Shown here piece by piece: positions 7,529 through 64,000 of a stretch of 64,000 nt of DNA (the first letter of the stretch is position 1; each line of letters starts with the position of its first letter). Where the stretch lies: the NCBI GenBank assembly GCA_015062245.1, contig SUVA01000001.1, forward strand, positions 12,856 to 76,855, given 5' to 3'. Under the pieces are notes generated by a model that saw nothing but the letters and a program-made list of their open reading frames with translations, did not search any database and had not been told where the DNA came from. This DNA comes from Alphaproteobacteria bacterium (GTDB lineage: Bacteria; Pseudomonadota; Alphaproteobacteria; CAAHEQ01; UBA3637). Both the position numbers and the translations under genes were made by a program.

Positions 7529-7543
7529 AAAATTAAATTTAAA

Positions 7544-7573
7544 AAGACGCCCGATTCAAGGCGTCTTTTTTTT
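7544..7573. terminator. Bidirectional rho-independent terminator between HIT gene and nagZ
   Basis: Hairpin AAGACGCC-8 nt loop-GGCGTCTT followed by a T-run and preceded by an A-run. Confidence 0.6.
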
Positions 7574-7612
7574 ATTTGTTTTTGGCCCAATCTTCCATAT
7601 AATCAAGACCTT

Positions 7613-8707: not shown

Positions 8708-8715
8708 AAAACTCC

Positions 8716-15187: not shown

Positions 15188-15249
15188 TTAAAAGTCAATC
15201 TTTGTCTTTTGGCTTGCAATTTTGTTTAAATTTCTTTACCCTAAAACAG

Positions 15250-24966: not shown

Positions 24967-25059
24967 GTTCGCCTCCTTACATATATTATACCACAATTTT
25001 GAAATTTGTCATAAAAAACTTTCTTTTTGGCAAAAAATATGATAAAATAAGACTGTTAT

Positions 25060-29942: not shown

Positions 29943-29954
29943 CGTTTTATTTCC

Positions 29955-31715
29955 TTATCTTTTTGTGTTGATATTACAGGCATTGATTTCTTTTTCGGTT
30001 TCAACCGCATCCGGTTCATTCCCGTCAATCAATAACGCATCATATTCTTCTTTAAAGAACTTCATGGTTGACAAAACCGGATTGGGGGCTGTTTGGCCTA
30101 AACCACACAAAGAAGCCTTTTGCATGGCGTTTCCGATTTCCTTGATTTTGGCCACATCCGCTTTGGTGCCTTTGCCATCGGCAATTTTGTTCATTAATTG
30201 CAACATTTGATATCCACCAATACGGCATGGCGCACACTTACCACAGGATTCATCCACCGTAAAGCCCAAATAGAACTTGGCAATTTCAACCATACTGTCG
30301 TCTTCATCCATGATAATCATACCGCCTGAGCCCATCATAGAACCGATTTTTTTCAATTCTTCATAGCATAACGGCATATGCAGTTCGCTGGCCGGTATCA
30401 CACCACCGGAAGGACCGCCCGTTTGAACGGCCTTAAAGGGCTTACCGGAACTGGTCCCGCCACCGACGTCGTTCACCATTTCACCAACGGTTGTTCCCAT
30501 CGGCACTTCCACAAGACCTGAATGTTTCACTTTACCGGTGATGGCAAAAACTTTTGTGCCTTTGGACGTTTCGGTGCCAACTTCGCTGAACCATTCGGGA
30601 CCGTTGACCATAATCGGTGCAATATTGGCCAAAGTTTCCACGTTGTTGATGGCCGTCGGCTTATCAAACAATCCTTTTTGTGTCGGGAATGGTGGACGGG
30701 GACGTGGTGTACCGCGCTTACCTTCCACAGACGACATCAGGGCTGTTTCTTCACCACACACAAAGGCCCCAGCCCCATAACGGATATCCGCCATAAAGTT
30801 AAAGTCTGTGCCAAAAATGTTGCGGCCCAAAATACCATAGCGTTTGGCCTGTTTAATTGCCAATTCCATCCGCTGAATCGCCAAAGGATATTCGGCACGG
30901 ATATAGAACCATCCGTTGGTGGCCCCTGTCGCATAGGCACCAATCATCATCCCTTCCAATACGGCATGGGAACCACCACCTAAAATACACGAATCCATAT
31001 AGGCGCCCGGATCGCCTTCATCACCGTTACAAATCATAAACTTTTCACCGTCAACCAAGGGCGATTTGGCCAGCATTTCCCACTTGACACCTGTGGGGAA
31101 TCCGCCACCGCCACGACCACGCAAGCCGGACTTTTTAATCACTTCCAACACTTCTTCGGGTTTCATGGTCAAAGCCTTCATCAACCCCTGATAACCACCG
31201 TTGGCAATATATTCGCCCAAATCTTCGGGATCCGAATGGCCCAACAAACGCAATACGATTTTACGTTGTTTTTGGAAAAACGGCAAATCCAAAGAAAGTT
31301 CTTGTTGTTTCAAATAATCCGAAGTATTGATTTCGCCTTCTGATTTCAACGCCGGTGCCACATGCTCGGCCACAATCAATCGGGCCATATCGGGCGTTAC
31401 ATGTTGATATAATACAGGCTTTTGACCTTTAATTTCCACACGGGCCAAAGGACCGGAGGCACACAACCCCATACAACCGGTGCAAACCATACGCACATCG
31501 GCTTCTATACCGGCCGATTTTAAAGCTTCTTTAAAAGTATCAATCACACTGGATGCACCACCTGAATGACAGCTGGTGGCATTACAGGTGTAAATGGACG
31601 CCTTAAAATGGGCCACACGTTCTTTAAATTCATCACCCAATTTTAACAATGTTTCTTTTTGGGTGCGCCCCAAAGCTTTTAATTTTTCAACTTGTTCTTG
31701 TGACAATTCTACCAT
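29955..31715 (-). CDS. hydB: NuoF-like flavoprotein subunit HydB (FMN/NAD(P)H-binding, 2Fe-2S + 4Fe-4S clusters)
   Basis: GRGGGGFPTG FMN motif; N-terminal thioredoxin-like 2Fe-2S domain (CTGCMGLCASGP); C-terminal CGKCAPCR-type ferredoxin motifs; 586 aa as in trimeric bifurcating hydrogenases. Confidence 0.8.
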   Translation of the reverse strand: MVELSQEQVEKLKALGRTQKETLLKLGDEFKERVAHFKASIYTCNATSCHSGGASSVIDTFKEALKSAGIEADVRMVCTGCMGLCASGPLARVEIKGQKPVLYQHVTPDMARLIVAEHVAPALKSEGEINTSDYLKQQELSLDLPFFQKQRKIVLRLLGHSDPEDLGEYIANGGYQGLMKALTMKPEEVLEVIKKSGLRGRGGGGFPTGVKWEMLAKSPLVDGEKFMICNGDEGDPGAYMDSCILGGGSHAVLEGMMIGAYATGATNGWFYIRAEYPLAIQRMELAIKQAKRYGILGRNIFGTDFNFMADIRYGAGAFVCGEETALMSSVEGKRGTPRPRPPFPTQKGLFDKPTAINNVETLANIAPIMVNGPEWFSEVGTETSKGTKVFAITGKVKHSGLVEVPMGTTVGEMVNDVGGGTSSGKPFKAVQTGGPSGGVIPASELHMPLCYEELKKIGSMMGSGGMIIMDEDDSMVEIAKFYLGFTVDESCGKCAPCRIGGYQMLQLMNKIADGKGTKADVAKIKEIGNAMQKASLCGLGQTAPNPVLSTMKFFKEEYDALLIDGNEPDAVETEKEINACNINTKR

Positions 31716-31732
31716 CTTTTATCTCCTTACGC

Positions 31733-32218
31733 TTACATTGCCATTGTTTCACGCCATTCGGCAATAATTTTCGGCACTTCCAACGGGGTTACACGGCCGT
31801 ATGTTTTGCCATTGACAACCACAACGGGGGCCAAACCGCAACACCCTAAACAACGCACCACCTGAATATAAAACAAACCGTCATCTGTTGTAATACCGGC
31901 CTTCACACCCAATTCGGATTCAAATGCATCAATAACGGATTGGCTTCCCTTAATATGACAGGCTGTACCATCACAAATAGAAATAACAACTTTTCCCGGC
32001 GGATTTAATTTAAAGTGATTATAAAACGTTAAAACGGAATAAATTTGAGCCATCGGAATCTTTAATTCTTCGGCCACCACTTCCATGGAACACCACGGCA
32101 CATAACCAAATGCCCCTTGGATTTCGTGCAAAGCCATGATTAAAGAACCACGTTTGCTTTTCCACTTGACCATCATTTTTTTGGTCTCTTCTTGTATTTT
32201 TGCTTTATCTTCGGACAT
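31733..32218 (-). CDS. hydC: NuoE-like thioredoxin-fold 2Fe-2S subunit HydC
   Basis: CDGTACHIKG ... VRCLGCCGLAP motif; start at 32218 (MSEDKAKIQ) with RBS AAGGAGAA. Confidence 0.75.
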   Translation of the reverse strand: MSEDKAKIQEETKKMMVKWKSKRGSLIMALHEIQGAFGYVPWCSMEVVAEELKIPMAQIYSVLTFYNHFKLNPPGKVVISICDGTACHIKGSQSVIDAFESELGVKAGITTDDGLFYIQVVRCLGCCGLAPVVVVNGKTYGRVTPLEVPKIIAEWRETMAM

Positions 32219-32252
32219 TATATTCTCCTTTTTTGTTTTAAAGATATTTTCG

Positions 32253-32280
32253 TTATAACATATATTAAAATAATACGCAA
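32253..32280 (-). promoter_or_regulatory. Candidate sigma70-like promoter for hydCBA
   Basis: On the minus strand, TTGCGT-16 nt-TATAAC about 30 nt upstream of the hydC RBS. Confidence 0.4.
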
Positions 32281-32300
32281 GAATTTTTGAACAAATAAAA

Positions 32301-32325
32301 ACCACCGTTTTATCGGTGGTTTTTA
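32301..32325. terminator. Bidirectional terminator downstream of tyrS
   Basis: ACCACCG-TTTTAT-CGGTGGT hairpin with flanking A5 and T5. Confidence 0.55.
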
Positions 32326-38605: not shown

Positions 38606-38650
38606 TTTTTGACTCCTTTCTTTTATTTGTTCAGACAGTAAATACCTTTT

Positions 38651-38740
38651 GTCATTCCCCACTTGATGGGGCATCCATAAGGATTTAATTCTATGGATCT
38701 TCGTGTCAAGCACGAAGATGACAGTGATGGGGTGGAATGA
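38651..38740. repeat. MITE-like element of about 90 bp with terminal inverted repeats (GTCATTCCCCAC ... GGGGTGGAATGAC), copy 1
   Basis: The 5' 27 nt GTCATTCCCCACTTGATGGGGCATCCA and the terminal GGAATGAC recur at 63489..63575; internal hairpin CTTCGTG-tcaag-CACGAAG. Confidence 0.45.
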
Positions 38741-42092: not shown

Positions 42093-42714
42093 AAAAAATG
42101 ATAAAAAAAGGTATAAAGAAAATATGTTTGAAGAATTAGAAAAAATTAAATCAGAATGTCAAAATTGTATGCGTTGCCCTTTGGGGAAAACACGCACAAA
42201 TGTTGTTTTTTCGGCCGGTGTCCCCAATTCGGATATCGTTTTAATCGGTGAAGCGCCCGGCTATAACGAAGATATGACAGGTGAACCTTTTGTGGGGCGT
42301 GCCGGTCAGTTGCTGGATAAGATTTTGGAATCGGTCGGTTTTTCACGCAAAGAAAACATTTATATTTGCAACACAATTAAATGTCGTCCGCCCGATAACC
42401 GTGATCCTTTGCCCGAAGAAAAATCGGCCTGCCGTGAATATTTAAACAGGCAGTTGGATTGTTTGAAGCCCAAAATTATCTTATTGTGCGGTCGGGTGGC
42501 TTTAACATCATTTATTGAAACAAAGCAGGGTATTTCAAAAATACGGGGCCATTGGTTTGACGGGCCCAACGGCGCCAAGATGATGCCGATTTTTCATCCG
42601 TCCTATTTGCTCAGAAATCCGTCCCATAAAGAAGGTTCGCCCAAATGGTTGATGTGGCAGGATATGAAAGAAATCCGCCGTGTTTATGATGAACTTAAAA
42701 CAGGTTTGGCATAA
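42076..42714 (+). CDS. Family 4 uracil-DNA glycosylase (4Fe-4S type)
   Basis: GEAPGYNEDMTGEPFVGRAGQLLD motif; Cys ligands (CQNCMRCPL ... CNTIKCRPP); HPSYLLRNP near C-terminus. Confidence 0.8.
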   Translation: MNFLIEKNDKKRYKENMFEELEKIKSECQNCMRCPLGKTRTNVVFSAGVPNSDIVLIGEAPGYNEDMTGEPFVGRAGQLLDKILESVGFSRKENIYICNTIKCRPPDNRDPLPEEKSACREYLNRQLDCLKPKIILLCGRVALTSFIETKQGISKIRGHWFDGPNGAKMMPIFHPSYLLRNPSHKEGSPKWLMWQDMKEIRRVYDELKTGLA

Positions 42715-43130
42715 AAATGCAAAACATCCGTCAATCGTGGTAATTTAATAATCACATCAAAGGTATATCTGTCCACAATATGATATTCTTTTAAATCAGA
42801 ACGATATAAAATCAATTCTTCACAAAACCGACCGACAATTAAAGCCTTTGCAAATAATTGTTTTAATGAATATTCCATTTGATAGGCCAACAAAGTCGGT
42901 TGGCCAAAAACAGAATCCCGTCTTTCGTGTTCATGGATGGAAAACAACTCCAATCCGTTCCACGATAAACCGTCTGTAATATGTAAAAATTGAATGTAAT
43001 CTGATGGTATTTGAATCCAACCTTTTTTAACCAAAGAAATAGAGGTTCGTTGAATGTCCATCATTTGCGCCGGCGAAAAAAATTGAGCGTAATTTTGATA
43101 AAGGGTATTCAAGATGGTGTTGATGCTCAT
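42684..43130 (-). CDS. Hypothetical protein, last gene of the T4CP operon
   Basis: 148 aa; start ATG overlaps the upstream stop as TAATG; no recognisable motif. Confidence 0.45.
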   Translation of the reverse strand: MSINTILNTLYQNYAQFFSPAQMMDIQRTSISLVKKGWIQIPSDYIQFLHITDGLSWNGLELFSIHEHERRDSVFGQPTLLAYQMEYSLKQLFAKALIVGRFCEELILYRSDLKEYHIVDRYTFDVIIKLPRLTDVLHFYAKPVLSSS

Positions 43131-43807
43131 TATCGTCCCCCTGTTTTGACGGCAATTTGTTGCAAATTGGCACTGCTTAAACCGGCCTGAGTGGAACGGT
43201 CTGATTTTTTCTTGCCCCCTGAACCTGTCATTTCACCGTTGGGAATGTAAATTTTACCCAAAGGCACAGGAATGTATAAAGTTTGCGGATGGCCCACACC
43301 GGCCGAAGTTAAAATTTGTTGATTGATATATTTGTGAATCAATTCATGAAAGGGGTGAATGGGAATCAAAACCAAATTATCCATATCCAAATTGCCCCCA
43401 TATAACAACGGATATTTTAAATGCACCGTCCAATTGGTGGGTAAAATCCCCTTGGACATATAAAAGATACTTTCTTCGGATATATCAGCACTGCGTAAAT
43501 CGTTCACATATTGGGCGACTAAATCTTTTAAAAAAAAGTGTTTAAGTTTTTCCAGTTTTTGATGAAATTCAGCTTCATTTATCGTATGCGGATAATAATT
43601 GGCCGACATCAATTCCATGCCAGCAAAATTTTCCTGTTGAAATAAATCCACCCAATAATCTTGATTTTTTATATCCGAATCCAACCCCTCCATCAAACCA
43701 TCCAAACCAATGGAATCCGTTTGTGTTTTGGGTGCCGAATTATCCATCAACTGGTCCCAGTTGTCATAAATTTCATTGCCGTCCAATTCTGTCAGATTTT
43801 CATCCAT
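43130..43807 (-). CDS. Acidic hypothetical protein co-operonic with the T4CP (candidate adaptor/chaperone)
   Basis: 225 aa; D/E-rich N-terminal half; Cys-free; overlaps the T4CP stop by 8 nt. Confidence 0.45.
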   Translation of the reverse strand: MDENLTELDGNEIYDNWDQLMDNSAPKTQTDSIGLDGLMEGLDSDIKNQDYWVDLFQQENFAGMELMSANYYPHTINEAEFHQKLEKLKHFFLKDLVAQYVNDLRSADISEESIFYMSKGILPTNWTVHLKYPLLYGGNLDMDNLVLIPIHPFHELIHKYINQQILTSAGVGHPQTLYIPVPLGKIYIPNGEMTGSGGKKKSDRSTQAGLSSANLQQIAVKTGGR

Positions 43808-46088
43808 TTAAATCATCCTTGGGTAGTGGTGGTTGAAAAGTCGGTGCTGAGGTCGGTGGTGCAAAAACCCCCTGACCCTGAGGCGGTAAAATTGCCTGAA
43901 CGGGTTGCGCATTATTTTGAAGTTGAATTTGTTGTTCTGTACTTTCTTGCGGTTGAGGTTCTTCCGATTTTTGTTGTTGGTTTTCCGGCGCCCGTCTGTC
44001 CACAATCCATTGGGGAATATATGGGGCGGTCGGAATCTGAGTCTTTTTCAAAAAGCCTTTATCCAAATAATACCGTGGTGCATCGGCCAAAATCGGATGC
44101 GATAAGAACCCTTGGAACAAAACATACTGTTTTAACATATCCAAACTTAAAATATCCGAAGCACTGACCACATCTGATTTTTGCAATTGACGGGATACGT
44201 TTTGCGAAAAGTCAAACATTTTTTGTCCTCCGCCTTCTTGTTTGGATGTGCTTTTAACTTCAATCGTTTTGGAACCAATCATTTTTACAAAACGTTCGGC
44301 TGTTTGTTCGTTGTTTTGGGATAAAATAACTTTTGCCGCCGTTGTTGAAATAATTGTTTCCAAATCGTCTTTACCGTATTGGCCGGAAATTTGGCCTAAA
44401 TCCTGCCCGATTAACAAATAGGCCACCTTTTGTCCACGACCAACAGCCGGACCGTTTTTCACACAATCCAGTTTTGGCATTTGCGGGAATTCGTCCAACA
44501 CGAACAAAACAGGACAAGGCCCACATTTTTTGCCGTCATTACCCACATACCCCGGCGGATTAGCAATTAAAAATGAACTGACCAATTCCACAAAGATACC
44601 CGTAATCACGTTCAAAGCACGGGCATCCACTTGGTTAATGGACAAATAAACGGAAATCGGTTTGATTTTGCCGTCCGCCGGATCCACCATACCACGCAAA
44701 TCACGGAAAGTAAAATCACTGAATTTGGTTCGTTCTTTTACAGCCGCATTTTTAAAAATACTGATACCTGACAAAGCGGTTGATAAAATTGACCCACGTT
44801 CTTTATCGGGCGTACTGGATAACTGATTTAATTCGGCAATAGCCCGACGGGCATAAGCAAAGCGATTACTTTCATTCACGGCCGCATCCAACACGTCCTT
44901 CATGGGATCGGCCATCATGGCCATTTGATCGCCTTCATCGGAACGGCGTTTAATATCGGCGGCGATTTTCATCTGCATATCGGTCAGCCATTCCAAAATC
45001 ATGGCAATACACGGTTCATGCCCGTGCCAGATTTCAGGCAAACCTTCCCACGTACCGACAGGCGCATAGTTATTTAAATTCAGCTGTCCTTTTTTCAAAG
45101 CATCCAAAGCAATCAAGGCACTGTTATCGGACATATCGGCATAATAGGTGGCCAAAACATTGGCGTCTTCTTGATCAAAAGAACCTTCGGATAACTTGTT
45201 GATAAAATAATCGTTGGCACGGGCCCGTTCGCATTTGCTGGCAATAAAGTGCAAAAAACCACTCATGGCATTACGACCTGTTTTACACCAGTGCGGATCT
45301 GCTCCCCCTTTGGGTTCTTCCACCAACACGGCCACCATAGAGTCAATATACATATCTCGGGCCGGTCCCAACGGGGGCAATGCCGTGGGCGATAAAGGAT
45401 TCCAGCTGGGATAAAAGACACCGTTTTGCGGTTCGTCTTGGGCGCCCCAGTTGATGATAAAAACAGGGCCTATTTTATTACGATAACCTGATGTTTGATA
45501 GCATAATTCGGGTTTCACGTCATTGACAATAATACTTAAAGAATCAGATTCAAAAATCGTGGGAATAACCACGCCGGCGGTTTTACCCGTTCCCGGCGGT
45601 GCCACCACCAAGGCGGATAAAGTGTTGGGCATTTTTAACAAACGCCCCTTAAAACGCCCCAAAACGCAACAGAATCCATCAAACAGCCCCATCTTTTTAA
45701 TATCCTGATAGGAGGCCAAACGGCCACTGCCAAAAACGGTGGACAGATTGGAATATGGGTTCGTATACAATCCGACAAAAATAATAATAGGAATAACGGC
45801 AATCGGAATAAACGGCAAAAACATTGCCACAGGCACAGGGGAAATTTCACGAAATTGTTTTATCCAATTGGCATAGGTAATAATAATTTTGCTGGGATGT
45901 AAAAATGCCTTTGACCAAAAATCCCAAGCAATGCCAACCAACGAAATATCCCCCGATAACAACCAATGTGTGATTGGTAAAATCAACAAAGACAATATCC
46001 ACGAACAAAACAATGCAAAAAGAACAGAAAGTATAACATGAGAAATATACTTATTTTTTTCTTTATATTGATCGTCTGCCATTTTCAT
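43800..46088 (-). CDS. Type IV secretion coupling protein (VirD4/TraG/DotL family ATPase)
   Basis: Two N-terminal TM helices, then FGSGRLASYQDIKKMGLF. Walker A VVAPPGTGKTAGVVIPT (compare VirD4/TraG APTRSGKGVGxVIPT) and Walker B VLFVLDEFPQMPKL. About 60-aa Q/P-rich disordered C-terminal tail. Confidence 0.8.
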   Translation of the reverse strand: MKMADDQYKEKNKYISHVILSVLFALFCSWILSLLILPITHWLLSGDISLVGIAWDFWSKAFLHPSKIIITYANWIKQFREISPVPVAMFLPFIPIAVIPIIIFVGLYTNPYSNLSTVFGSGRLASYQDIKKMGLFDGFCCVLGRFKGRLLKMPNTLSALVVAPPGTGKTAGVVIPTIFESDSLSIIVNDVKPELCYQTSGYRNKIGPVFIINWGAQDEPQNGVFYPSWNPLSPTALPPLGPARDMYIDSMVAVLVEEPKGGADPHWCKTGRNAMSGFLHFIASKCERARANDYFINKLSEGSFDQEDANVLATYYADMSDNSALIALDALKKGQLNLNNYAPVGTWEGLPEIWHGHEPCIAMILEWLTDMQMKIAADIKRRSDEGDQMAMMADPMKDVLDAAVNESNRFAYARRAIAELNQLSSTPDKERGSILSTALSGISIFKNAAVKERTKFSDFTFRDLRGMVDPADGKIKPISVYLSINQVDARALNVITGIFVELVSSFLIANPPGYVGNDGKKCGPCPVLFVLDEFPQMPKLDCVKNGPAVGRGQKVAYLLIGQDLGQISGQYGKDDLETIISTTAAKVILSQNNEQTAERFVKMIGSKTIEVKSTSKQEGGGQKMFDFSQNVSRQLQKSDVVSASDILSLDMLKQYVLFQGFLSHPILADAPRYYLDKGFLKKTQIPTAPYIPQWIVDRRAPENQQQKSEEPQPQESTEQQIQLQNNAQPVQAILPPQGQGVFAPPTSAPTFQPPLPKDDLNG

Positions 46089-46094: not shown

Positions 46095-47237
46095 TTATGA
46101 TAAAATTTGTTTTATTTGTTGAATGGTATCTTCCGGCAACGGTTCATATTGTTTGTTTAAAATCTCACCCAGTGTTTTTAATTCCACCGGTCCGCCAATA
46201 TCCGTTCGGCATACAATAACCCCTAAATCATTCCAAGTTCTGAGCATATCTTCGGCATTTATCAGATTCCCTTTGCGTTCAATCAACATCGGTTGAACCT
46301 TTAAATCAAAACCGGCTGAGGTCAGTTTTTGGCCAACGGCCTTCGTTTGTTGAATCAATTCAAAAACAGGCGATACCCGATGATCCGTTTCCGAAAACCA
46401 CAAAGGATCTTCGTCATTAAACGCTTCTTCATCGGCCAACCAATCCCCCTCAATATCGTCATAAATTGCCCACAACATTTGCCCCTGACAAACGGCCACC
46501 AAATCAGGCTTTTTATTGCCCAAATCAATATCCGATAAAATGGTCCACCCTGTATTTATTAAAAGTTCATGGGCGTTTTCTTCAACCGCCTGATGTGTGG
46601 GTAATTGAATTTCATCCAACGGCATATCGGCCATTTGTTTCAAATCGGGTTCAATCGGATTCCACACATTATCCGGCATAGACGGCGTTGGCGAAAAATC
46701 TTGATGATTTGTTGCGGGCGCATTTGCATAAGATGGCATTTCAGTCGACATCGGATTGGATTGCGCAAAACTTTGTTGTTGAACGGGTTGCGCACGCATT
46801 GTGGGGCCCATTGTCGGCATCGGCATCGGGCGTTGCGCCGAAATCGGTGGCGCCTTAACCGTTTTATGTGATGAATGCGACCGATTTTTGTGTTCAGAAT
46901 GTTTTGAGGCAGGGGTTATTTTTTTCTTGATATGTTGGATATGCTTTTGGGGCAACGTTCCCACCTTTTTTGCCGAAGAACGCCACTGTATCTTATTGGC
47001 CCAATACCAAATTCCCAAATACATGGGAATAACCAAAATAAAGGAAATTAAAAAAATCCAATCCCCAACGCTGGATACACGCCATCCGGCGTTTATTTCC
47101 TGAAACAAAAAACGCCACGATTCACTTGAAAAAAGGTTAAAATTCCAATTGATTTGCAAAAAACCACGGAACCACCACCCAAAAAACAGCAGTGCCACAA
47201 CAAAACCAATCAATAAAGTCCTTTTCGGATTTTGCAT
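46095..47237 (-). CDS. Two-TM inner-membrane protein with large cytoplasmic domain, first gene of the T4CP operon (DotM/IcmP-like by size and architecture?)
   Basis: Start at 47237 (MQNPKRTLLIGFVVALLFFGWWF) with RBS AAAGGAAATAAA, giving 380 aa. Two TM segments, a P/Q/M-rich linker and an acidic C-terminal domain. Ends 6 nt before the T4CP start. Confidence 0.5.
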   Translation of the reverse strand: MQNPKRTLLIGFVVALLFFGWWFRGFLQINWNFNLFSSESWRFLFQEINAGWRVSSVGDWIFLISFILVIPMYLGIWYWANKIQWRSSAKKVGTLPQKHIQHIKKKITPASKHSEHKNRSHSSHKTVKAPPISAQRPMPMPTMGPTMRAQPVQQQSFAQSNPMSTEMPSYANAPATNHQDFSPTPSMPDNVWNPIEPDLKQMADMPLDEIQLPTHQAVEENAHELLINTGWTILSDIDLGNKKPDLVAVCQGQMLWAIYDDIEGDWLADEEAFNDEDPLWFSETDHRVSPVFELIQQTKAVGQKLTSAGFDLKVQPMLIERKGNLINAEDMLRTWNDLGVIVCRTDIGGPVELKTLGEILNKQYEPLPEDTIQQIKQILS

Positions 47238-47325
47238 TTTATTTCCTTTTTCTGATGTTATTATACACAAAACAAAAGCATTTGACCAGCAAAAAATGCG
47301 ATAATTAAAAAAAATAGGAACAGAC

Positions 47326-47354
47326 TTGTAAAACAAACAAAAATAAGGTATAAT
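47326..47354 (+). promoter_or_regulatory. Sigma70-like promoter of the J-domain gene (divergent from the T4CP operon)
   Basis: TTGTAA-17 nt-TATAAT. Confidence 0.45.
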
Positions 47355-58558: not shown

Positions 58559-60367
58559 CTATGTTATAGCACTATTATGGAAAAAAGTATAGACTTTTTT
58601 TGCAATTTTTTCATTAAATCCGGGAATATTTTTAATTTGTTCCACGGAAGCCCCTGAAATGGCCCGCACGGACCCAAAGTGCAACATCAACATTTTGCGC
58701 CTTTTGGGGCCGATATCTTCAATGTCTTGCAATCGTTCATGGAAGTTTCCTTTTTCACGCTTTGCCCGATGTGAACCAATCACAAAGCGATGTGCTTCAT
58801 CACGCAAACGTTGCAACAAATGCATTAAATCGCCTTTTAAATCCAAATGAATGGGGGTATTTGGATCCGAGTTTAAATAAAAAATTTCCAAGCCTTTATC
58901 GTGTTGCCCTGCCCCTTTGGCCATCGCCAAAACTTTCATTTGAATTTGCAATTCATCCAACACCTGCATTACCGAAGACAATTGCCCCTTACCACCATCC
59001 AACAACAAAGCATCCGGCAGGCATCCGTCATTTTTGCCACGTATTAAACGCCGTTTTAACACATACCGCATCATACCAAAATCATCGCCGGCCAATTCTT
59101 GGGGAACATTATAACGGCGGTATCTGTTTTTTAAAAATCCGTCGGGACCAGCCGATACAACCGCCCCAACGGCATTTGTGCCCTGTAAATGACTGTTATC
59201 AAAAATATCCACAATTTTTAAATCACTCACACCCAATAAATCCGCAAAAGCCTGCCATGTTTTTTGTTTGTTTTCCTTGGTATTCAAGGCCCGTTCGGCC
59301 GATTGAAGCGCCTGAACCATCCAATCTTTTTTAATCTGTTTGAAGGGGGGATGATTTATTCTGATACGTTTTTGGGCAATTTCGCTGACAGCATTTGATA
59401 AAACATCATCTGTTTTCCACGAAAGACAAATCACATCCGGCGGTGGCACTTGGGTGTAAAGTTGCAAAATCAAACTGGCCAAAGTTTCATCCAATTCGTT
59501 TTCATCCACATGATTTAGGATATATTCTTGATGTCCCGTTAAACGGTCTGTTCTGTGGAAAAAGACCTGTAACGACAAAGTGTTGTTTGCATAGGCATAG
59601 GCAATTGTATCCGTATCATGATTGGGCAAAGCCTGACTGGTGCCTTGAATCCGATTGAGTGCGGCAATTTTATCACGCAAAACGGCGGCTTTTTCGTATT
59701 CCTGATTGGCGGACAGTTGCATCATTTGGGCCTGTAAATTTTCCTGAATGGTATAAGATTTTTGTGTTAGAAAATCCCTTGCCTGAGCCACTGATTTTTG
59801 ATAATCAAAAGGTGATATTTTTTGGCAACACGGTGCCGAACAACGTTTAATCTGATACATTAAACAAGGACGTGTGCGATTATTAAAATAGCTGTCTTTA
59901 CACGAACGCAACCCAAACAGTTTTTGTAATTCTATCAATGTGTGATTGACACTTTCGCCCGAATCAAAAGGCCCAAAATAATCCACGCCTTTTTGGCGTT
60001 TGCCCCGATATTTAAACAAACGGGGAAATTCATCTTTTGATAAAGCAATATACGGATAACTTTTATCGTCTTTTAATAAAATATTATAATAAGGGCGATA
60101 TTGTTTGATCAGTTCGTTTTCCAACAAAAAAGCCTCAGTTTCACCGGCTGTTTCAATCACCACAACATCTTTGACATGGGCCACCATTTCCCGAATGCGA
60201 AAAGACAATTTTTCGGGGCGTGTATAGTTGGTTAAACGATGAACTAAATCTTTGGCTTTGCCGACATATAAAACTTTGCCGTCTTCATCCAACATCCGAT
60301 AAACACCGGCTTTGTGTGAAAAAGTTTTAATTTTTTCTTTGATGATTTCGTGGCCCTGTTTCGTCAT
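58559..60367 (-). CDS. uvrC: Excinuclease ABC subunit C
   Basis: N-terminal GIY-YIG (GVYRMLDEDGKVLYVGKAKDL), UvrBC domain, RNase H-like and C-terminal HhH2 domains. Confidence 0.9.
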   Translation of the reverse strand: MTKQGHEIIKEKIKTFSHKAGVYRMLDEDGKVLYVGKAKDLVHRLTNYTRPEKLSFRIREMVAHVKDVVVIETAGETEAFLLENELIKQYRPYYNILLKDDKSYPYIALSKDEFPRLFKYRGKRQKGVDYFGPFDSGESVNHTLIELQKLFGLRSCKDSYFNNRTRPCLMYQIKRCSAPCCQKISPFDYQKSVAQARDFLTQKSYTIQENLQAQMMQLSANQEYEKAAVLRDKIAALNRIQGTSQALPNHDTDTIAYAYANNTLSLQVFFHRTDRLTGHQEYILNHVDENELDETLASLILQLYTQVPPPDVICLSWKTDDVLSNAVSEIAQKRIRINHPPFKQIKKDWMVQALQSAERALNTKENKQKTWQAFADLLGVSDLKIVDIFDNSHLQGTNAVGAVVSAGPDGFLKNRYRRYNVPQELAGDDFGMMRYVLKRRLIRGKNDGCLPDALLLDGGKGQLSSVMQVLDELQIQMKVLAMAKGAGQHDKGLEIFYLNSDPNTPIHLDLKGDLMHLLQRLRDEAHRFVIGSHRAKREKGNFHERLQDIEDIGPKRRKMLMLHFGSVRAISGASVEQIKNIPGFNEKIAKKVYTFFHNSAIT

Positions 60368-60425
60368 ACTTTATAGAATAGCCCGAAACCCGCCAAAAGT
60401 CAATTTTAAATTTTTTCCAATAATT

Positions 60426-61529
60426 TTAAAAGCGTGGGCTTAATGTTAAATTGTCCGCATAAATCCTGAACGTTTTGATATGATTTTTTTTGCCCTTTTT
60501 AACGGCACGAATCAAAACATTTTTGGCCGTATGTTCCATGGGAATAAACTCCATCACCTGAACACTGTATCCTTGGGCTTCCAATAAATTCGCCCGAACG
60601 GCATCCGTTAAAAGGGCCGAAAAACGTTCTTTAATCAAACCGTATTTTGTCATTATCGGCCAAGCATTTTTGATTTGAGAATTGATTTCATGCTGACAGC
60701 ACGGCACCGATAAAATAATCGGCACATCCCAACAAATAGCATTAAACAAAGCGTAATCCGTGGCGGTATCACAGGCATGTAAAGATACAATCATATCTAT
60801 TTGCTTTGTCGGTTTAAATCCATTGATATCACCAATTTGAAATGATAAATTTTGATAACCGTATTTTTCGGCCACAATATTGCATTTTTCAATAACTTCC
60901 GATTTTAAATCCAGTCCGATAACCGTCGCATTTAATTTTTTGATTTCGGTTAAATAATAGTATAACACAAAAGTCAAATACGATTTTCCGCAACCAAAGT
61001 CAATAACCGTGATATCAGCTTTGGACCAATTCTTTAAAGTGTCATCCACCATTTCCAAAAACTTATTTATTTGACGGAATTTATCCATTTGTGAGGCAAT
61101 AATTTTGCCCTCTTTTGTCATAACACCAATATCAATTAAAGGCGGAATTTTTTCATTTTCAGGCAACAAATAATTTTTAAGCCGGTTATGAGTTTGAATT
61201 TTTTCGTTTCTTTGTTCATGGTGATGGGTTGAAACAATCATTTTTCCTTTTTTGCTGACTTTGATTTCAATATCTTCATGCGTGGCAAAAAAATTCAATT
61301 GTTTATATTTAACATTAAATAATTCTTGGATACGATTATTTAAATCAGAAATTGTTTTGATGTTTTCCTGAAAAGCCTGTTTATCCGTATAAAGGGTCAT
61401 TTGCCACATAGATTTATTTTTAATTAAAATGGGCACAATAACCGCCTTATTATAGGCAAAAGATTTATCCTTTTTATTACTTAAAACAATTTTTGAAAAA
61501 GGCTGTTTTAAAAGTTCGTTTATTTGCAT
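60426..61529 (-). CDS. Class I SAM-dependent methyltransferase (Methyltransf_32-like) with about 150-aa N-terminal domain of unknown function
   Basis: Motif I VIDFGCGKSYL; downstream VSLHACDTATD motif. Confidence 0.65.
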   Translation of the reverse strand: MQINELLKQPFSKIVLSNKKDKSFAYNKAVIVPILIKNKSMWQMTLYTDKQAFQENIKTISDLNNRIQELFNVKYKQLNFFATHEDIEIKVSKKGKMIVSTHHHEQRNEKIQTHNRLKNYLLPENEKIPPLIDIGVMTKEGKIIASQMDKFRQINKFLEMVDDTLKNWSKADITVIDFGCGKSYLTFVLYYYLTEIKKLNATVIGLDLKSEVIEKCNIVAEKYGYQNLSFQIGDINGFKPTKQIDMIVSLHACDTATDYALFNAICWDVPIILSVPCCQHEINSQIKNAWPIMTKYGLIKERFSALLTDAVRANLLEAQGYSVQVMEFIPMEHTAKNVLIRAVKKGKKNHIKTFRIYADNLTLSPRF

Positions 61530-61624
61530 TTTTGATTGGGGCCAATTTTAAATTTGATTTGTTGTGTGTTTTGTTTTTCTGTGAATTTTAACAAAAGCCC
61601 CATGAAATGTCAAGCATTATAAAA

Positions 61625-61706
61625 AAGTCGCCCAAACGGACGACTTATCTGAACTGGTAGAGAACGTCTTGCCCCGCACGGACTGAAAAAGACAAAAAAA
61701 TAACCT
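61625..61706 (-). repeat. Conserved 3'-UTR/terminator module of the MORN-like cassette, degraded copy 1
   Basis: Shares CACGGACTGAAAAA and the terminal hairpin plus T-run with copies at 62543..62660 and 63585..63694; the first hairpin AACCTCTACC is half-lost here. Confidence 0.6.
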
Positions 61707-62324
61707 CTATCGAGCTTTTAAATCTTTTAATTTTTTCTGTCTCGCCATACGTTCGACTTTTCTTTCTGCTTTCTCCTGTTCTGTCTTTGGAAAAACTTCT
61801 CTATAGTCACGCACAAGTTCTTTTTTACGCCCTTTGCTACAAGAACTGTCCAAAAGTTTTGTCAGTGTTCTTCTTTTTCGAATGTGTCTAAATCCAAAAA
61901 TAGGGATAGAAACCCCTTTATCTATAACTTTTCCATCTCGATATCGAACAAAAGCCCCTTCAGGGCGTATACCTATACCATCATAACGCCCAACGTACTT
62001 ACATTTTATATCCTTCCCATTTGAAGCGTATATTTCTCTTAAAATTTTACCATCTGAACGAGAACTCTCCTTTGCCCAAACTTTTCCACCATCATAATAC
62101 TCTGTATAAAGCCACTTTCCATCCTTATGTACAAATTTAGACTCTATTTCACCACTTTCATCAAAATTCAAACTCTCCCCATCAAGAAGGCCATTTTTGT
62201 CTACAATACGAATTCCTTCAATCCTCCCCTTCCCCAAAAGAACATCCCAAAAACTTCTGGGGGAATAATATTCTATTTTTTGAATATGACCATCCTTTAA
62301 CTTTTTTCTAACTGTTTCACGCAT
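61707..62324 (-). CDS. MORN/YwqK-like repeat protein, paralog A
   Basis: Start at 62324 (MRETVRKKLKDGHIQ) with RBS GAAAGGAAAT. Shares N-terminal box, G-periodic repeats (YxxxG, DGK) and the C-terminal REYREVFPKTEQEKAERK...KxLKA box with 62678..63319. Confidence 0.55.
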   Translation of the reverse strand: MRETVRKKLKDGHIQKIEYYSPRSFWDVLLGKGRIEGIRIVDKNGLLDGESLNFDESGEIESKFVHKDGKWLYTEYYDGGKVWAKESSRSDGKILREIYASNGKDIKCKYVGRYDGIGIRPEGAFVRYRDGKVIDKGVSIPIFGFRHIRKRRTLTKLLDSSCSKGRKKELVRDYREVFPKTEQEKAERKVERMARQKKLKDLKAR

Positions 62325-62542
62325 TCTATTTCCTTTCAATTGAATTAAGTCATATCTCAATTAAAACAAATTTTCCCCATAAAGTCAACAGTTTTTCGAA
62401 TTAAAATTTCTGAGAGAAATTTTAGCTATCCAGATGATAAGATATTGATAAATAAGGATATTTCTTAATTACTGGTCCGTGTAAGCATCATTTTTGGCCT
62501 TCTTTGATACAACCTCACACGGACTTGTATAACTTATTGATT

Positions 62543-62660
62543 TTAAAAGAAAAAAGCGCCTTCATCAGGCGCTATCCAAGAACTGGTGGAGGAGGTCTTG
62601 CAGGACACGGACTGAAAAATCACAAAGAACAACCTCTACCATCACGCAGGTAGAGGTTAA
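62543..62660 (-). repeat. 3'-UTR module copy 2: stem-loop AACCTCTACC/GGTAGAGGTT, then 60-nt spacer, then rho-independent terminator
   Basis: Read on the minus strand after the gene B stop: AACCTCTACC-tgcgtga-TGGTAGAGGTT ... CAGTCCGTG ... AGCGCCTGATGAAGGCGCT-TTTTTT. Confidence 0.65.
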
Positions 62661-62677
62661 AATTTGAAATAATTTTT

Positions 62678-63319
62678 TTATTTTCCTTGAGCTTTTAACT
62701 CTTTTATTTTTTTCTGTCTTGCCACACGTTCGGCTTTTCTTTCTGCTTTTTCCTGTTCTGTTTTGGGAAAAACCTCTCTGTATTCCCTAACCGTGTGTTT
62801 TTTATTTCCTTTGCTAGTCACACTATCTAGAAACTCAGTCAGTCCTTTTCTATCCTTAATGGTTTTTCCATTTGTACGAACACCTTTATCCACTACCTGT
62901 TCATTCTGATCATATTCAACAAAATGTCCATCGGGTATCCATGTTGTTCTAATTGAATCCTCAAAATGCGGATCATATGAATATTTTTGATATCCTGTAA
63001 ATTCTTCTTCTTTTGTTCCGTCTGGTCTATATATATACGTTGTTCTTGCATGGTCGGATTTTTTACTGTGAAGCTTTCCTTTTGTATCATAATTTTCATC
63101 GGATATTAATAGGTTTTTCTTATACACACATCTACTAGAAATACTCCCGTCTTTTCTATAGCTAATACATTCTCCATCTTTTTTACCGTTTTTATCAAAG
63201 ATCATAATATCTTCAATTTGTCCTCTTCCCAAAAGAACATCCCAAAAACTTCTTGGATGATAATAATATGTCACCTGTATATGACCATCTTTTAACTTTT
63301 TTCTAACTGTTTCACGCAT
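62678..63319 (-). CDS. MORN/YwqK-like repeat protein, paralog B
   Basis: 213 aa; RBS GAAAGGAATATTAAATG; same N- and C-terminal boxes as paralog A with a divergent middle. Confidence 0.55.
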   Translation of the reverse strand: MRETVRKKLKDGHIQVTYYYHPRSFWDVLLGRGQIEDIMIFDKNGKKDGECISYRKDGSISSRCVYKKNLLISDENYDTKGKLHSKKSDHARTTYIYRPDGTKEEEFTGYQKYSYDPHFEDSIRTTWIPDGHFVEYDQNEQVVDKGVRTNGKTIKDRKGLTEFLDSVTSKGNKKHTVREYREVFPKTEQEKAERKAERVARQKKIKELKAQGK

Positions 63320-63488
63320 TTAATATTCCTTTCGGTTTAATCGATCTAGGTTTTTATTAAAACAAAAGTTCACCTTATAGTCAACAGTTTTTTGAAATAT
63401 ATGGGATAAATTTTTGATTTCCCGAAGCTCGGATATTGATTTCAAAGGATTTTTACACACTTGCACACGGACTTGTCCATTTTTATCT

Positions 63489-63575
63489 GTCATGCCCCAC
63501 TTGATAGGGCATCCAGTGGCTATATATTCCTTATTGTGTACTTACGCATTTGATTCCCGATCAGGTCGGGAATGA
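63489..63575. repeat. MITE-like element copy 2 (GTCATGCCCCACTTGATAGGGCATCCA ... GGGAATGAC)
   Basis: Same 27-nt 5' end and GGAATGAC terminus as 38651..38740; internal hairpin TTCCCGA-tcaggt-CGGGAA; sits about 170 nt upstream of the paralog B start. Confidence 0.45.
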
Positions 63576-63584
63576 CTCTAAGTA

Positions 63585-63694
63585 AAAAAAGCGCCGTTTT
63601 CAGGCGCTATCCAAGAACTGGTGGAGGAAGTCTTGCATAGCACGAACTAAATTTCATAAAAAATAACCTCTACCATCGCGTAGGTAGAGGTTGA
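63585..63694 (-). repeat. 3'-UTR module copy 3
   Basis: AACCTCTACC-atcgcgt-AGGTAGAGGTT hairpin, then terminator AAAGCGCC-gttttc-AGGCGCT. Confidence 0.6.
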
Positions 63695-63697
63695 AAT

Positions 63698-64000
63698 TTA
63701 TACACGCCCCTGCTTCACAGTACTTTGAATACGCATTTTTTCGGCACGGTCTTTATCAATTATTTTTTGCATTTCTTCTGCACTTATATTTTTGACTTTT
63801 TGTCTTACTCCTTTATTTATTTCAACCATCTTTCCTCCAACCATTTCAATTGTATCTGGAGAAGTAAATTGGTAAACAGGTGTTGCTTCCATAGTTGTAG
63901 AGTATACCGCATAGGAATCTAGCCCCAACAGGGAACCTTCAATCCATTCAAAAGGTTTGTTTCCCTTTTCTCTAAAAACTACTTTTCTTTCATGTTCAAT
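63698..64000 (-). CDS. Third paralog of the cassette family, 3' part only (gene runs past the window end)
   Basis: C-terminal KDRAEKMRIQSTVKQGRV* resembles the K/R/E-rich tails of paralogs A and B and is followed by the same 3' module; the reading frame stays open upstream of the track's first Met. Confidence 0.3.
   Translation of the reverse strand: MEHERKVVFREKGNKPFEWIEGSLLGLDSYAVYSTTMEATPVYQFTSPDTIEMVGGKMVEINKGVRQKVKNISAEEMQKIIDKDRAEKMRIQSTVKQGRV

Follow-up and report, generated by a model that had tools for sequence, protein, structure and literature searches.

A probable tRNA-anchored, hypervariable gene-cassette array in an uncultured alphaproteobacterium

The array and its boundaries

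We analysed a 64 kb stretch of DNA (the window, 64,000 nucleotides) and found that its last part, from position 61625 onward, is probably (about 0.6 by our estimate) the distal half of a tRNA-anchored hypervariable gene-cassette array, remodelled by recombination between repeats. On balance, the array appears to extend from a tRNA-Tyr(GTA) gene, beginning at its 3′ end, to a methyltransferase gene. The tRNA gene lies ~1.7 kb past the end of the window behind two further cassettes, as read from the same locus in other assemblies (L001, with tRNA-Tyr at 7552-7637; window position = 73320 - L001 position), and in this respect the original prediction, that the array continues beyond the window, was borne out. 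The window's array is common to independent assemblies from JGI, ENA, Logan and NCBI; three long contigs span the region from ProRS to uvrC, and shorter contigs represent parts of the array. The genes run in one direction, as had been predicted, and the strand is the minus strand for all of them. The genes at this end of the locus are as follows.

60426..61529, minus strand: SAM methyltransferase (Methyltransf_32; Pfam 144.9 bits), flanking housekeeping gene
61585..61613, minus strand: methyltransferase promoter-like site, TTGACA-17-TAAAAT with upstream TG; 11/12 consensus matches
61707..62324, minus strand: g1, 205 aa, with a K/R/E-rich helical tail behind a divergent MORN_2-like repeat core of predicted beta-hairpins
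62678..63319, minus strand: g2, a 213-aa MORN_2-like paralog of g1 by sequence comparison (MBE6445864.1)
63698..64000, minus strand: 3′ part of g3, cut by the window end and unrelated to g1 and g2

The methyltransferase gene is the distal array boundary in the window's species, where it flanks all three alleles (A, B and C) described below. Each cassette consists of a promoter-like element (TTGACT-17-TYTAAT), a ribosome-binding site, one ORF and one or two intrinsic (Rho-independent) terminators. The spacers are 300-380 bp long and 70-85% alike across cassettes and species, and the ORFs between them are mostly unrelated orphans. All five intergenic units, the tRNA-to-g4 spacer included, align over their full length. 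A spacer profile matched the tRNA-proximal spacer with E = 9e-20, and its only matches in the 64 kb window were 61651-61711, 62322-62671 and 63317-63702. The amplified paralog family that had been proposed is replaced by a row of unrelated ORFs (212 aa, 265 aa and two MORN-like genes, with an Ank-like gene in sister strains) that have only the spacers in common.

The same spacers with different cargo were found behind the same tRNA-Tyr in other species, or behind tRNA-Ala in L015, where the tRNA 3′ end is also CCTCCACCA. Cargo sets differ in five further arrays besides alleles A, B and C. L014 carries a MORN-like protein of 208 aa and a Cys-rich protein of 96 aa between tRNA-Tyr and tRNA-Gly-tuf, L017 combines a DUF805 protein with a Cys-rich one of 167 aa, the cargo of L078 is a canonical, secreted MORN protein (203 aa), and L016 (UBA3637) has a single 250-aa gene, with a T2-type terminator after the tRNA and a T1-type terminator after the distal linker. 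Across the sample of ~8 distinct arrays, all from one narrow clade, the system is restricted to a small clade of uncultured Alphaproteobacteria.

The 3′ module and its tRNA-like core

Behind the ORFs lies a 3′ module in the order hairpin terminator, linker AGTCCGTG-N4-GCAAGAC-N-TCCTCCACCAGTT and second terminator. The sequence GAACTGGTGGAGGAGGTCTTGC, with three or fewer mismatches, gave three matches against 0 expected. The original prediction placed the same module after each gene; the module does occur three times, while the 10-bp stem of its hairpin is complete only twice (62631-62658 and 63665-63692). The elements are listed below.

61625..61646, minus strand: distal terminator T1, AAGTCGTCCG-TTTG-GGCGACTT plus T-run
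61652..61684, minus strand: linker A, with octamer O1 at 61677-61684, GCAAGAC at 61666-61672 and core CTCTACCAGTT at 61652-61662
61702..61709, minus strand: hairpin right half TAGAGGTT, overlapping the g1 TAG stop codon; left arm and loop deleted
62555..62573, minus strand: terminator T2 of cassette g2, AGCGCC-TGATGA-GGCGCT plus TTTTTT
62581..62613, minus strand: linker B, with O1 at 62606-62613, GCAAGAC and core CTCCACCAGTT at 62581-62591
62630..62659, minus strand: g2 hairpin, the first intrinsic terminator; 10-11 bp stem AACCTCTACC-N8-GGTAGAGGTT with T-rich tail
63590..63608, minus strand: terminator T2′ of cassette g3, from a terminator scan
63616..63648, minus strand: linker C, with degenerate O1 CACGAACT at 63641-63648, GCAAGAC and core CTCCACCAGTT at 63616-63626
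63665..63692, minus strand: g3 hairpin terminator, fold z = -5.0

The last 11 nt of the linker are a copy of the tRNA-Tyr 3′ end: CTC(C/T)ACCAGTT is present at the tRNA end and in every linker, and the core AACTGGTRGAG occurs three times in the window against 0.02 expected. Upstream of these ~11 nt, likeness between linker and tRNA was not significant (p = 0.05-0.7). In linker A, whose O1 reads CACGGACT on the plus strand, the core CTCTACCAGTT copies the tRNA-Tyr 3′ end, and the adjoining T1 is of the same type as the terminator after the tRNA-Tyr gene; this distal-end sequence is conserved in L009 and L072. Both the tRNA-Tyr anchor and the tRNA 3′-end copy in the module had lain outside the view of the original prediction.

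Alleles and recombination

Three alleles were found within the species: A (g4-g3-g2-g1), B (g3-g1-ank) and C (g4-g3-g2/g1 hybrid-ank). They differ by single-cassette indels, whose breakpoints fall within the octamer, the hairpin and the conserved C-terminal box of the paralogs. Unequal recombination, as had been predicted, has left a g2/g1 hybrid gene in the sister strain L072, which is 100% gene 2 up to ~nucleotide 540 and then continues as the gene-1 3′ end; the spacer between the two genes and the body of gene 1 have been lost, with the crossover in the C-terminal box. Alleles B and C carry an Ank-like cassette, for which linker A is the 'empty-site' junction. That cassette is bounded by direct TTTCAGTCCGTG repeats, of which allele A has a single copy, 91-96% identical to the left flank of the cassette upstream of the octamer and 88-92% identical to its right flank downstream. 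Deletions from an ancestor with five cassettes would suffice to produce all three alleles, and no insertion event was observed among them. Three indels with three breakpoints fit general recombination rather than one dedicated crossover site; a repeat of 8-13 bp is short for RecA-dependent recombination.

These observations suggest that cassettes may be deleted, fused and reshuffled by recombination for which the spacer repeats, and in the paralogs the C-terminal coding box, would be the substrates, with the tRNA-like core and the octamer marking the cassette joints. The array was probably built by successive insertions beside the tRNA 3′ end, and its later remodelling would be mainly by general recombination between repeats. 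Neither the 64 kb window nor up to 10 kb of flank around the related loci fetched held a gene that we recognised as an integrase, transposase or other recombinase; this check covered the called genes of L001, L072 and L078-L081 and those ORFs of the window that were inspected or scanned, part of them against Pfam. This negative result counts against our reading, which then gives no account of how unrelated ORFs came between identical spacers.

We consider it rather unlikely that the array arose by integron-like capture, in which a distant recombinase would insert and excise ~1 kb circular cassettes, either at the tRNA-like core or at the octamer. Primary attachment would then take place at the 3′ end of tRNA-Tyr (tRNA-Ala in L015), the spacer would be the cassette-borne site, and the octamers O1, O2 and O3 would be bound by the recombinase. 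Unrelated cargo between near-identical spacers is what such capture would produce, and every array lies 3′ of a tRNA ending in CTCCACCA, but a recombinase gene adjoins no array. The Ank-like cassette, with its direct octamer repeats and the single-copy empty site of allele A, fits capture, as does a second breakpoint directly 3′ of the octamer in a comparison of L014 with L016; the other indels, however, break in the hairpin and inside coding sequence. L016 resembles an attL/attR pair (tRNA, core and T2 at one end; linker, core and T1 at the other), and the sequence types after the tRNA CCA are those after the linkers. Against this, no circular or isolated cassettes were found, and the spacer profile matched no locus fetched from IMG/VR by two short-pattern scans, where the exact-pattern matches look like chance. 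Furthermore, the cassettes carry their own promoters, unlike integron cassettes, and the hairpin, which several cassettes lack, does not resemble attC.

A more specific proposal, which we also hold to be improbable, is an undescribed gene-capture platform in which a distant recombinase would insert single-gene cassettes with their own promoters at the tRNA-Tyr (and tRNA-Ala) 3′ end, with AGTCCGTG / GCAAGAC / CTCCACCA acting as the cassette-borne and chromosomal recombination site. It would supply a rumen alphaproteobacterium that has a type IV secretion coupling protein with changing effector- or immunity-like proteins bearing K/R-rich C-terminal tails. If true, the platform would function as an integron that has a tRNA as its anchor and no integrase gene.

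Comparison with known systems

Most known arrays of exchangeable one-gene cassettes are those of integrons or the immunity-gene arrays of Bacteroidales. The present array is built differently, with a tRNA 3′ anchor, a promoter and terminators for each cassette and no visible recombinase. Like integrons, including super-integrons and CALIN, it consists of co-oriented ~1 kb cassettes with one ORF, mostly orphan, followed by a repeated hairpin element, and its cassette content depends on the strain. However, an integron has intI, attI and a common promoter Pc, whereas no intI lies near the array, whose anchor is a tRNA 3′ end in place of attI; integron cassettes are mostly promoterless, whereas those of the array have their own promoter-like element and predicted terminators. 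The attC site, an imperfect palindrome (57-141 bp) that has extrahelical bases as well as RYYYAAC and GTTRRRY boxes, keeps its structure and not its sequence; the array hairpin is a perfect 10-bp stem with an 8-nt loop and is conserved in sequence. As a candidate attC site the hairpin was rejected, its flanks (TTTCAAC and GTTATTT/GTTGTTC) not fitting the boxes.

Like the array, islands and prophages that accrete in tandem at tRNA genes follow a tRNA gene directly on its 3′ side, repeat the tRNA 3′ end in direct orientation at every unit boundary and have the tRNA's own terminator type after the distal repeat. The array differs from them in its units of ~1 kb with one gene, its tRNA repeat of ~11 nt and its lack of an integrase or excisionase. 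It thus has the direct repeats of a tRNA island and not the integrase, being made up of cargo ORFs only.

YwqK/MORN_2-type proteins are annotated as antitoxin or immunity proteins, and polyimmunity loci and rAID-1 arrays, like the array, are tandem, same-strand rows of small heterogeneous genes that vary between strains. The rAID-1 arrays of Bacteroidales have repetitive intergenic sequences 'reminiscent of integrons' (Ross et al., bioRxiv 10.1101/471110), and ankyrin-repeat proteins (Imm-Ank) are among the immunity families of polyimmunity loci (Zhang et al. 2012, PMC3482391). In contrast to both, the array has no adjacent XerC/D-type recombinase in its flanks and no Imm family at threshold, its long spacers have separate promoters and terminators where the spacing in those loci is short and polycistronic, and its host is an alphaproteobacterium.

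The array is small and clean enough for dissection, and it preserves, within one species, a natural history of how cassettes were lost and reshuffled and genes fused. As far as its sequence can indicate, it would show how a gut or rumen lineage without cultured members keeps orphan genes both expressed and open to exchange. Should a dedicated recombinase exist, the system would represent a new class of gene capture; otherwise it is a tidy case of spacer-mediated modular evolution.

Octamers and promoter-like elements

The octamer CACGGACT occurs five times in the window against 0.58 expected, with four copies in the last 2.4 kb, and the complementary CACGGAC is at 62475. Its recurrence therefore agrees with the original prediction; its presence inside every 3′ module does not, the copy in the third being degenerate. 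Past the 3′ module, the remainder of the spacer carries the octamer as an inverted repeat and, after it, the promoter-like element. The octamers and promoter-like elements of the spacers are the following.

62360..62388, minus strand: g1 promoter-like element, TTGACT (62388..62383), 17 nt, TTTAAT (62365..62360)
62473..62526, no strand assigned: octamer inverted repeat upstream of the g1 promoter, with O3 at 62475-62482 and O2 at 62518-62525
63356..63384, minus strand: g2 promoter-like element, TTGACT (63384..63379), 17 nt, TTTAAT (63361..63356)
63466..63473, no strand assigned: octamer O2 of the g3/g2 spacer, its O3 partner missing from the spacer
63479..63592, no strand assigned: extra block of ~110 bp with two small palindromes, between terminator and O2

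In the cassettes read, from several species, TTGACT-17-TYTAAT lies ~35-60 nt upstream of the start codon and is conserved in position and sequence. The conserved leader AGTCAACAGTTTTT of the original prediction, which indeed precedes both paralogs (g1 and g2), is the -35 box of this element read on the opposite strand. The promoter scan missed the g1 element because its -10 box has no A at position 2. With a predicted promoter of its own, each cassette is expected to be self-contained in expression. The inverted repeat at 62473..62526, with arms of ~11 bp and a loop of 27-31 nt, has counterparts after the tRNA in L001, L014, L016, L078 and L079, and the ~110 bp block is also found in spacers of L017, L072, L074 and L078. 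Most plausibly, the octamers would be binding sites for a protein, either a recombinase or a regulator.

A reading of the spacers as purely regulatory would make them units of promoter, operator and terminator for a co-regulated gene set, in which one transcription factor binds the inverted repeat as its operator. The array would have grown by ordinary tandem duplication that took in the tRNA 3′ end, its ORFs diverging or being replaced afterwards, and no cassette would have been mobile. The fixed positions of the promoter-like and terminator elements, the inverted repeat ~100-150 bp upstream of each -35 box and the age of g1 and g2, which are true old duplicates (dS 0.8-1.7), all speak for it. 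Nevertheless we regard it as quite improbable: duplication and divergence would not leave 70-85% identical non-coding DNA beside dissimilar ORFs, several cassettes that look functional lack the inverted repeat or have only part of it (the g3/g2 spacer, L015 cassettes 1 and 2, and L017), and the octamer is at no other promoter in the other 61 kb of the window.

Terminators

The region holds nine terminator-like sites against 1.8 expected, five of them within the three modules. A T-rich run directly follows the hairpin, which therefore scores as an intrinsic terminator too, and the hairpin and the GC stem are predicted to be two tandem intrinsic terminators. Terminator stems vary between cassettes, with at least six different self-complementary sequences, and pairing is always kept. 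The hairpin, with its perfect 10-bp stem and 8-nt loop, is invariant in stem sequence in 12 copies.

Post-transcriptional control through a stable 3′ hairpin, as originally proposed, is not upheld. That the module is an RNA element of the 3′ UTR (a stabiliser, a tRNA-like processing signal or an anti-Shine-Dalgarno mimic acting after transcription) we consider very unlikely, for although it folds better than shuffled controls (z = -3.6 for g2 and -5.0 for g3), all four stem substitutions remain paired, as G.U, only on the sense strand and the linker contains ACCUCCU (CCUCC), the two terminator stems account for the folding energy, an Rfam search of the module gave no family below E = 1, the stem shows no compensatory double changes and is conserved as sequence and not only as structure, the linker has no conserved pairing, and several cassettes are without the hairpin.

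Cargo proteins

The original prediction described three paralogs with shared boxes at both ends. This holds for the genes at 61707-62324 and 62678-63319 and fails for the one at 63698-end: g3, which is 265 aa when complete and has a hydrophobic stretch at residues 24-69, is without both boxes, and BLASTP against gene 2 gave E = 0.54. The products of g1 and g2 are 55% identical, with nearly identical N-terminal (~36 aa) and C-terminal (~50 aa) boxes around a divergent core. Conserved ends around a variable core were confirmed by dN, which is 0.14 and 0.18 for the two boxes and 0.72 for the core. By sequence, g1 and g2 represent one old duplicated cargo.

Cargo proteins fall into few families plus singletons, and only one family reaches the Pfam threshold. 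The g1 and g2 proteins share with MORN_2 (PF07661)/YwqK proteins a repeat core, and differ from them in their unique terminal boxes, in the lack of an adjacent toxin gene and in direct PF07661 scores of 20.4 and 15.6 bits, below the gathering threshold of 29.6; NCBIfam gave no match for the MORN-like cargo. At the profile level the cores match true MORN_2 proteins, with E down to 7e-18. A profile of eight family members found 291 proteins at E <= 1e-3, matching only over query positions ~25-140 in up to 15 stretches, and six sampled matches confined to the repeat core score 42-185 bits on PF07661. The conserved N-terminal box and the K/R/E-rich helical C-terminal box were found in only ~4 protein clusters worldwide. 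An AlphaFold2 model of the MORN-like cargo (pLDDT 70.9) has 13 strands in hairpins and three C-terminal helices, and Foldseek with this model found only single-layer beta-sheet and YD-repeat proteins (TM ~0.35).

No toxin-like gene lies beside the MORN-like genes, their neighbours being other cargo or the methyltransferase gene, and no recognised immunity (Imm) family was found among the cargo in Pfam or NCBIfam, where MORN_2 and Ank matches were sub-threshold only. The MORN-like, Ank-like and Cys-rich secreted proteins would be obvious candidates for interaction factors of the organism, and our low-confidence guess is that the cargo may be accessory proteins, either secreted or translocated factors for interaction with hosts or competitors, or immunity-type proteins. 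Separately, the genome encodes a VirD4-type (type IV secretion) coupling protein, and basic K/R-rich C-terminal tails are common to several cargo proteins.

Genes of the array and its extent

All coding sequence within 61625-64000 lies on the minus strand. The same DNA is available in the opposite orientation as the locus L001 (window position = 73320 - L001 position). The window and L001 together hold the following features.

61707-62324, minus strand: g1, 205 aa
62678-63319, minus strand: g2, 213 aa, protein MBE6445864.1 ('MAG: Alphaproteobacteria bacterium')
63698-end, minus strand: g3, complete form 265 aa, hydrophobic stretch at residues 24-69
L001 7552-7637: tRNA-Tyr(GTA), about 1.7 kb past the window's end, the terminus of the array

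The original prediction described these three co-oriented genes as paralogs. This is correct for g1 and g2, which share 55% identity: their cores have diverged, and the boxes at the N-terminus (~36 aa) and C-terminus (~50 aa) hardly differ. The third ORF is ruled out as a paralog, having E = 0.54 against g2 and no relevant Pfam match. An exact match to the g2 protein is encoded by 18 contigs, which belong to JGI, ENA, Logan and NCBI assemblies. As had been anticipated, the array runs past the window: in L001 g3 is completed and followed by g4 (212 aa) and then by the tRNA.

Across tRNA-Tyr from the array, outside the window, a divergent block of unusual genes (L001 2105-7436) extends towards ProRS. 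It includes a divergent kinase-like gene of 384 aa, a PHP and GH77 fusion of ~890 aa, a Cys-rich, lipoprotein-like ORF of 189 aa and a neighbouring ORF with a weak ART-PolyVal match. The 384-aa protein has kinase-like catalytic motifs and no Pfam hit, and one homolog is named a serine/threonine kinase by NCBI; in several related species, too, its gene adjoins tRNA-Tyr.

Anatomy of the repeat unit

The five intergenic stretches (tRNA-g4, g4-g3, g3-g2, g2-g1 and g1-methyltransferase) can be aligned over their full length.

Parts of the spacer, in the direction of transcription
(a) hairpin AACCTCTACC-N8-GGTAGAGGTT with a T-rich tail
(b) linker TTTCAGTCCGTG-N4-GCAAGAC-N-TCCTCCACCAGTT
(c) GC stem and T-run
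(d) ~20 nt, then the inverted repeat (A/G)AGTCCGTGTG-N27-31-CACACGGAC(T/C)
(e) ATCCTTTAAAATCAATA and a small palindrome
(f) TTGACT-17-T(T/C)TAAT
(g) GAAAGGA-type ribosome-binding site and ATG

Parts (a) and (c) both score as intrinsic terminators, and the stem of (c) varies in sequence among cassettes with its pairing always kept. At the 3' end of g1 the hairpin is reduced to its right half, which provides the TAG stop codon of the gene; the full hairpin has two copies in the window. A 22-mer of the module (terminator, linker, terminator) occurs three times, with 0 expected, and the octamer CACGGACT five times in 64 kb, with 0.58 expected, four of the five being in the array region. A profile of the spacer matched these three array places only in the 64-kb window. 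The repeated non-coding DNA, including the predicted octamer clustering, is thus real and well above chance level.

The octamer proved to be a component that the linker and the inverted repeat have in common, and its copies (AGTCCGTG) are putative protein-binding sites. The 'leader motif' that had been noted, AGTCAACAGTTTTT, is indeed present, but is the -35 box on the opposite strand. Together with its -10 box it probably forms a working promoter, TTGACT-17-TYTAAT, which our promoter scan omitted because the -10 box does not have the usual A at position 2.

The linker closes with 11 nt, CTCCACCAGTT, that match exactly the end of the tRNA-Tyr gene together with the first three bases downstream, and the distal linker (61652-61684) is followed by a terminator of the same type as that after tRNA-Tyr. 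Upstream of these 11 nt, similarity to the tRNA is not significant. The module as a decayed copy of the tRNA's 3' third was accordingly rejected: alignment upstream of the last 9 nt was no better than that of shuffles (p = 0.05-0.7), and the ~11-nt core alone is shared.

MORN-like proteins g1 and g2

Direct Pfam scores for MORN_2 were 20.4 and 15.6, below the threshold of 29.6. When a g1/g2 family profile was searched against 1.84 billion representatives, only ~4 full-length relatives were recovered; in 291 further proteins the repeat core alone was matched, often many times each, and those sampled were true MORN_2 proteins (42-185 bits). An AlphaFold2 model of g2 (pLDDT 70.9) comprises a series of beta-hairpins followed by three helices, for which Foldseek returned generic beta-hairpin-repeat matches only, with low TM.

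Comparison of g1 with g2 bore out the description of conserved ends around a divergent core, with dN and dS of 0.136 and 0.84 in the N-terminal box, 0.72 and 1.67 in the core, and 0.18 and 0.83 in the C-terminal box. By these values g1 and g2 are old duplicates whose ends are under purifying selection, with occasional conversion. Recent gene conversion as the sole source of the conserved ends is rejected by the box dS of ~0.8 against dN of 0.14-0.18, although mosaic conversion does occur, in one strain allele (allele C, below). In a g1 ortholog pair across species the core had a dN/dS of ~0.8, a mark of fast protein evolution.

Strain alleles and recombination products

Within the species of the window we found three alleles with identical flanks on both sides.

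Cassette arrangements within the species
Allele A (window): g4-g3-g2-g1
Allele B (L010 and L009): g3-g1-ank, ank being an Ank-like cassette
Allele C (L072): g4-g3-g2/g1 hybrid-ank

The Ank-like cassette is flanked by direct TTTCAGTCCGTG repeats, which are a single copy in allele A. There, sequence upstream of the octamer is 91-96% identical to the left flank of the cassette and sequence downstream is 88-92% identical to its right flank, which places the switch at the octamer. Comparison of L014 with L016, two loci of other genomes, showed another breakpoint immediately 3' of the octamer. At the g1/ank junction (L009 939-1020, L012 790-860, L072 9120-9200) the linker core and terminator are absent, and the module octamer runs straight into the sequence found elsewhere behind the second octamer, equivalent to the loss of 88 bp between direct copies of the octamer.

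In allele B, the g3/g1 junction looks like a recombinant of the g3/g2 and g2/g1 spacers of allele A that changes over within the hairpin or close to it. The hybrid gene of allele C (L072 8488-9123; protein P0009, 211 aa), present on five contigs from different samples, is 100% g2 to about nucleotide 540, then mosaic, and g1-type through the stop codon and half-hairpin. It represents an unequal crossover within the conserved C-terminal box, in agreement with the unequal recombination originally proposed. Starting from an ancestor with five cassettes, a single deletion would suffice to give each of the three alleles.

Arrays in other genomes

The element is rare. The g2 family forms eight clusters among 5.8 billion proteins, the hairpin pattern was found in 2 of 185,579 species genomes, and the linker pattern gave four genuine metagenome matches, the other two of the six (the high-GC loci L021 and L023) being due to chance. 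Two short exact-pattern scans of IMG/VR yielded four matches to the hairpin and 44 to octamer-GCAAGAC; because none of the loci fetched fits the spacer profile, we regard them as chance matches and reject a phage or plasmid origin. A widening of the sample through the conserved distal 'RYLVI' gene yielded two homolog clusters only.

All arrays recovered with their start lie immediately 3' of a tRNA, whose end sequence is CTCCACCA.

Related loci
L014 (GCA_045537185.1): rpoH-like sigma gene, tRNA-Tyr, MORN-like 208 aa, Cys-rich secreted 96 aa, 128-aa gene, tRNA-Gly, tuf
L016 (UBA3637): flanks as L014; single 250-aa Ank-like cassette
L017: left flank as window; DUF805 protein and Cys-rich 167-aa protein
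L078: left flank as window; decayed cassette and secreted canonical MORN protein, 203 aa
L015: array behind tRNA-Ala(CGC), the 3' end of which is also CCTCCACCA

L016 has a cassette-type terminator after the tRNA and a T1-type terminator, like the distal one of the window, after the distal linker. Widening the sample through the 384-aa neighbour added L078 and L079 and two array-free loci of more distant relatives, L080 and L081, with neither tRNA nor array at that position. In L079 (9600-9891, minus strand), from a more distant species whose flanking protein is 66% identical, a terminator, octamer inverted repeat and spacer follow tRNA-Tyr, and the next genes (330 aa and 208 aa) have no further linker or module. 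This arrangement may be an ancestral or a decayed state of the array.

From species to species, and next to ORFs unrelated to each other, the non-coding spacers remain 70-85% alike, the hallmark of a cassette system and not of a diverged paralog family. The system is confined to a small uncultured clade; UBA3637, a relative, is a reported rumen taxon.

Cargo and possible function

By all-against-all comparison the cargo proteins form a small number of families (MORN-like, Ank-like and Cys-rich) besides singletons, and in Pfam and NCBIfam only DUF805, in one protein, passed a threshold. The idea of an amplified family of one paralog fails here, as the cargo is mostly unrelated.

Nine soluble cargo proteins (from L001, L014, L015, L016, L019 and L072) that have no other relationship carry 11-16 Lys/Arg within the C-terminal 40 residues. 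The g3 and Ank-like proteins share a motif, RERDxSGxKxT..F (44% identity over 43 aa, E = 1e-4). The tails or the motif could serve these proteins as a shared signal for targeting or translocation. The window also encodes a chromosomal VirD4/TraG-family type IV secretion coupling protein (43800-46088, minus strand; T4SS-DNA_transf, 186 bits). Its neighbours at 46095-47336, 43130-43807 and 42684-43130 have no Pfam match, and no other type IV secretion genes were recognised in the window. Speculatively, the tails and the VirD4/TraG-type protein hint at translocated effectors.

Mechanism and relation to known systems

The loci thus display a modular anatomy, anchoring at a tRNA, two terminators per module, cargo that differs by strain and species, and three recombination products. 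We favour, with a probability of roughly 60%, a tRNA-anchored cassette array remodelled by recombination between its repeats. Insertions beside the 3' end of the tRNA would have given rise to the array in the first place. Its remodelling has the look of general recombination among repeats of differing length, since the breakpoints are not the same.

The octamer junctions fit a site-specific event too, as expected of a dedicated integron-like system acting in trans; we consider this unlikely, as neither the window ORFs inspected or scanned nor the genes called in the fetched loci include a recognisable recombinase, and the breakpoints fall at different positions. More doubtful still is a purely regulatory reason for the conservation of the spacers. 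An RNA-level 3'-UTR function of the module is very improbable, since an Rfam scan of 60000-64000 (E <= 10) gave chance-level matches only (best E = 1.4) and no known RNA family, and the predicted consensus structure has only the hairpin and a weak 6-pair stem, with no compensatory pairs.

The tRNA-anchored array shares cassette logic with integrons, but has neither intI nor attC, and its cassettes carry putative promoters. Like tRNA-integrating islands with tandem accretion it has tRNA 3' repeats, but it has no integrase and one gene per unit. Polyimmunity loci and rAID-1 arrays are likewise variable arrays with repetitive intergenic DNA, whereas here there is no XerD-type gene and no recognised immunity family, and the spacers are long with their own putative promoters. 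Our literature search found no account of such an arrangement, which is not proof that none exists. The array offers a compact natural system, limited to its small clade, in which the stocking and exchange of orphan genes can be studied.

Other elements

An extra block of ~110 bp (window 63479-63592) is inserted between terminator and octamer repeat in some spacers. It carries two small palindromes, TTCCCGA..TCGGGAA and ATGCCCCA..TGGGGCAT, and recurs in L017 (5960-6080) and in L078 (positions 140-250 and 840-950 of the reverse complement of 6900-9900). A 28-bp relative (93% identical) lies at window 38650-38677, upstream of a pilin-like gene. The block looks like a small dispersed palindromic repeat.

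An ORF at 15202-16377 (plus strand) was considered as an IS1-type transposase and rejected: its N-terminal zinc-ribbon and HTH resemble IS1 InsA, and a GDSL lipase/acylhydrolase domain is attached. A secreted ankyrin-repeat protein is encoded at 9-716 (minus strand; Ank_4, 29 bits). A Fe-hydrogenase / NuoE-NuoF-like operon at 28185-32305 (minus strand), judged by eye only, would point to an organism that lives anaerobically. A permuted (two-piece) tmRNA gene at 25044-25363, with the tag ANDNFAPVAMAA, is consistent with an alphaproteobacterial origin.
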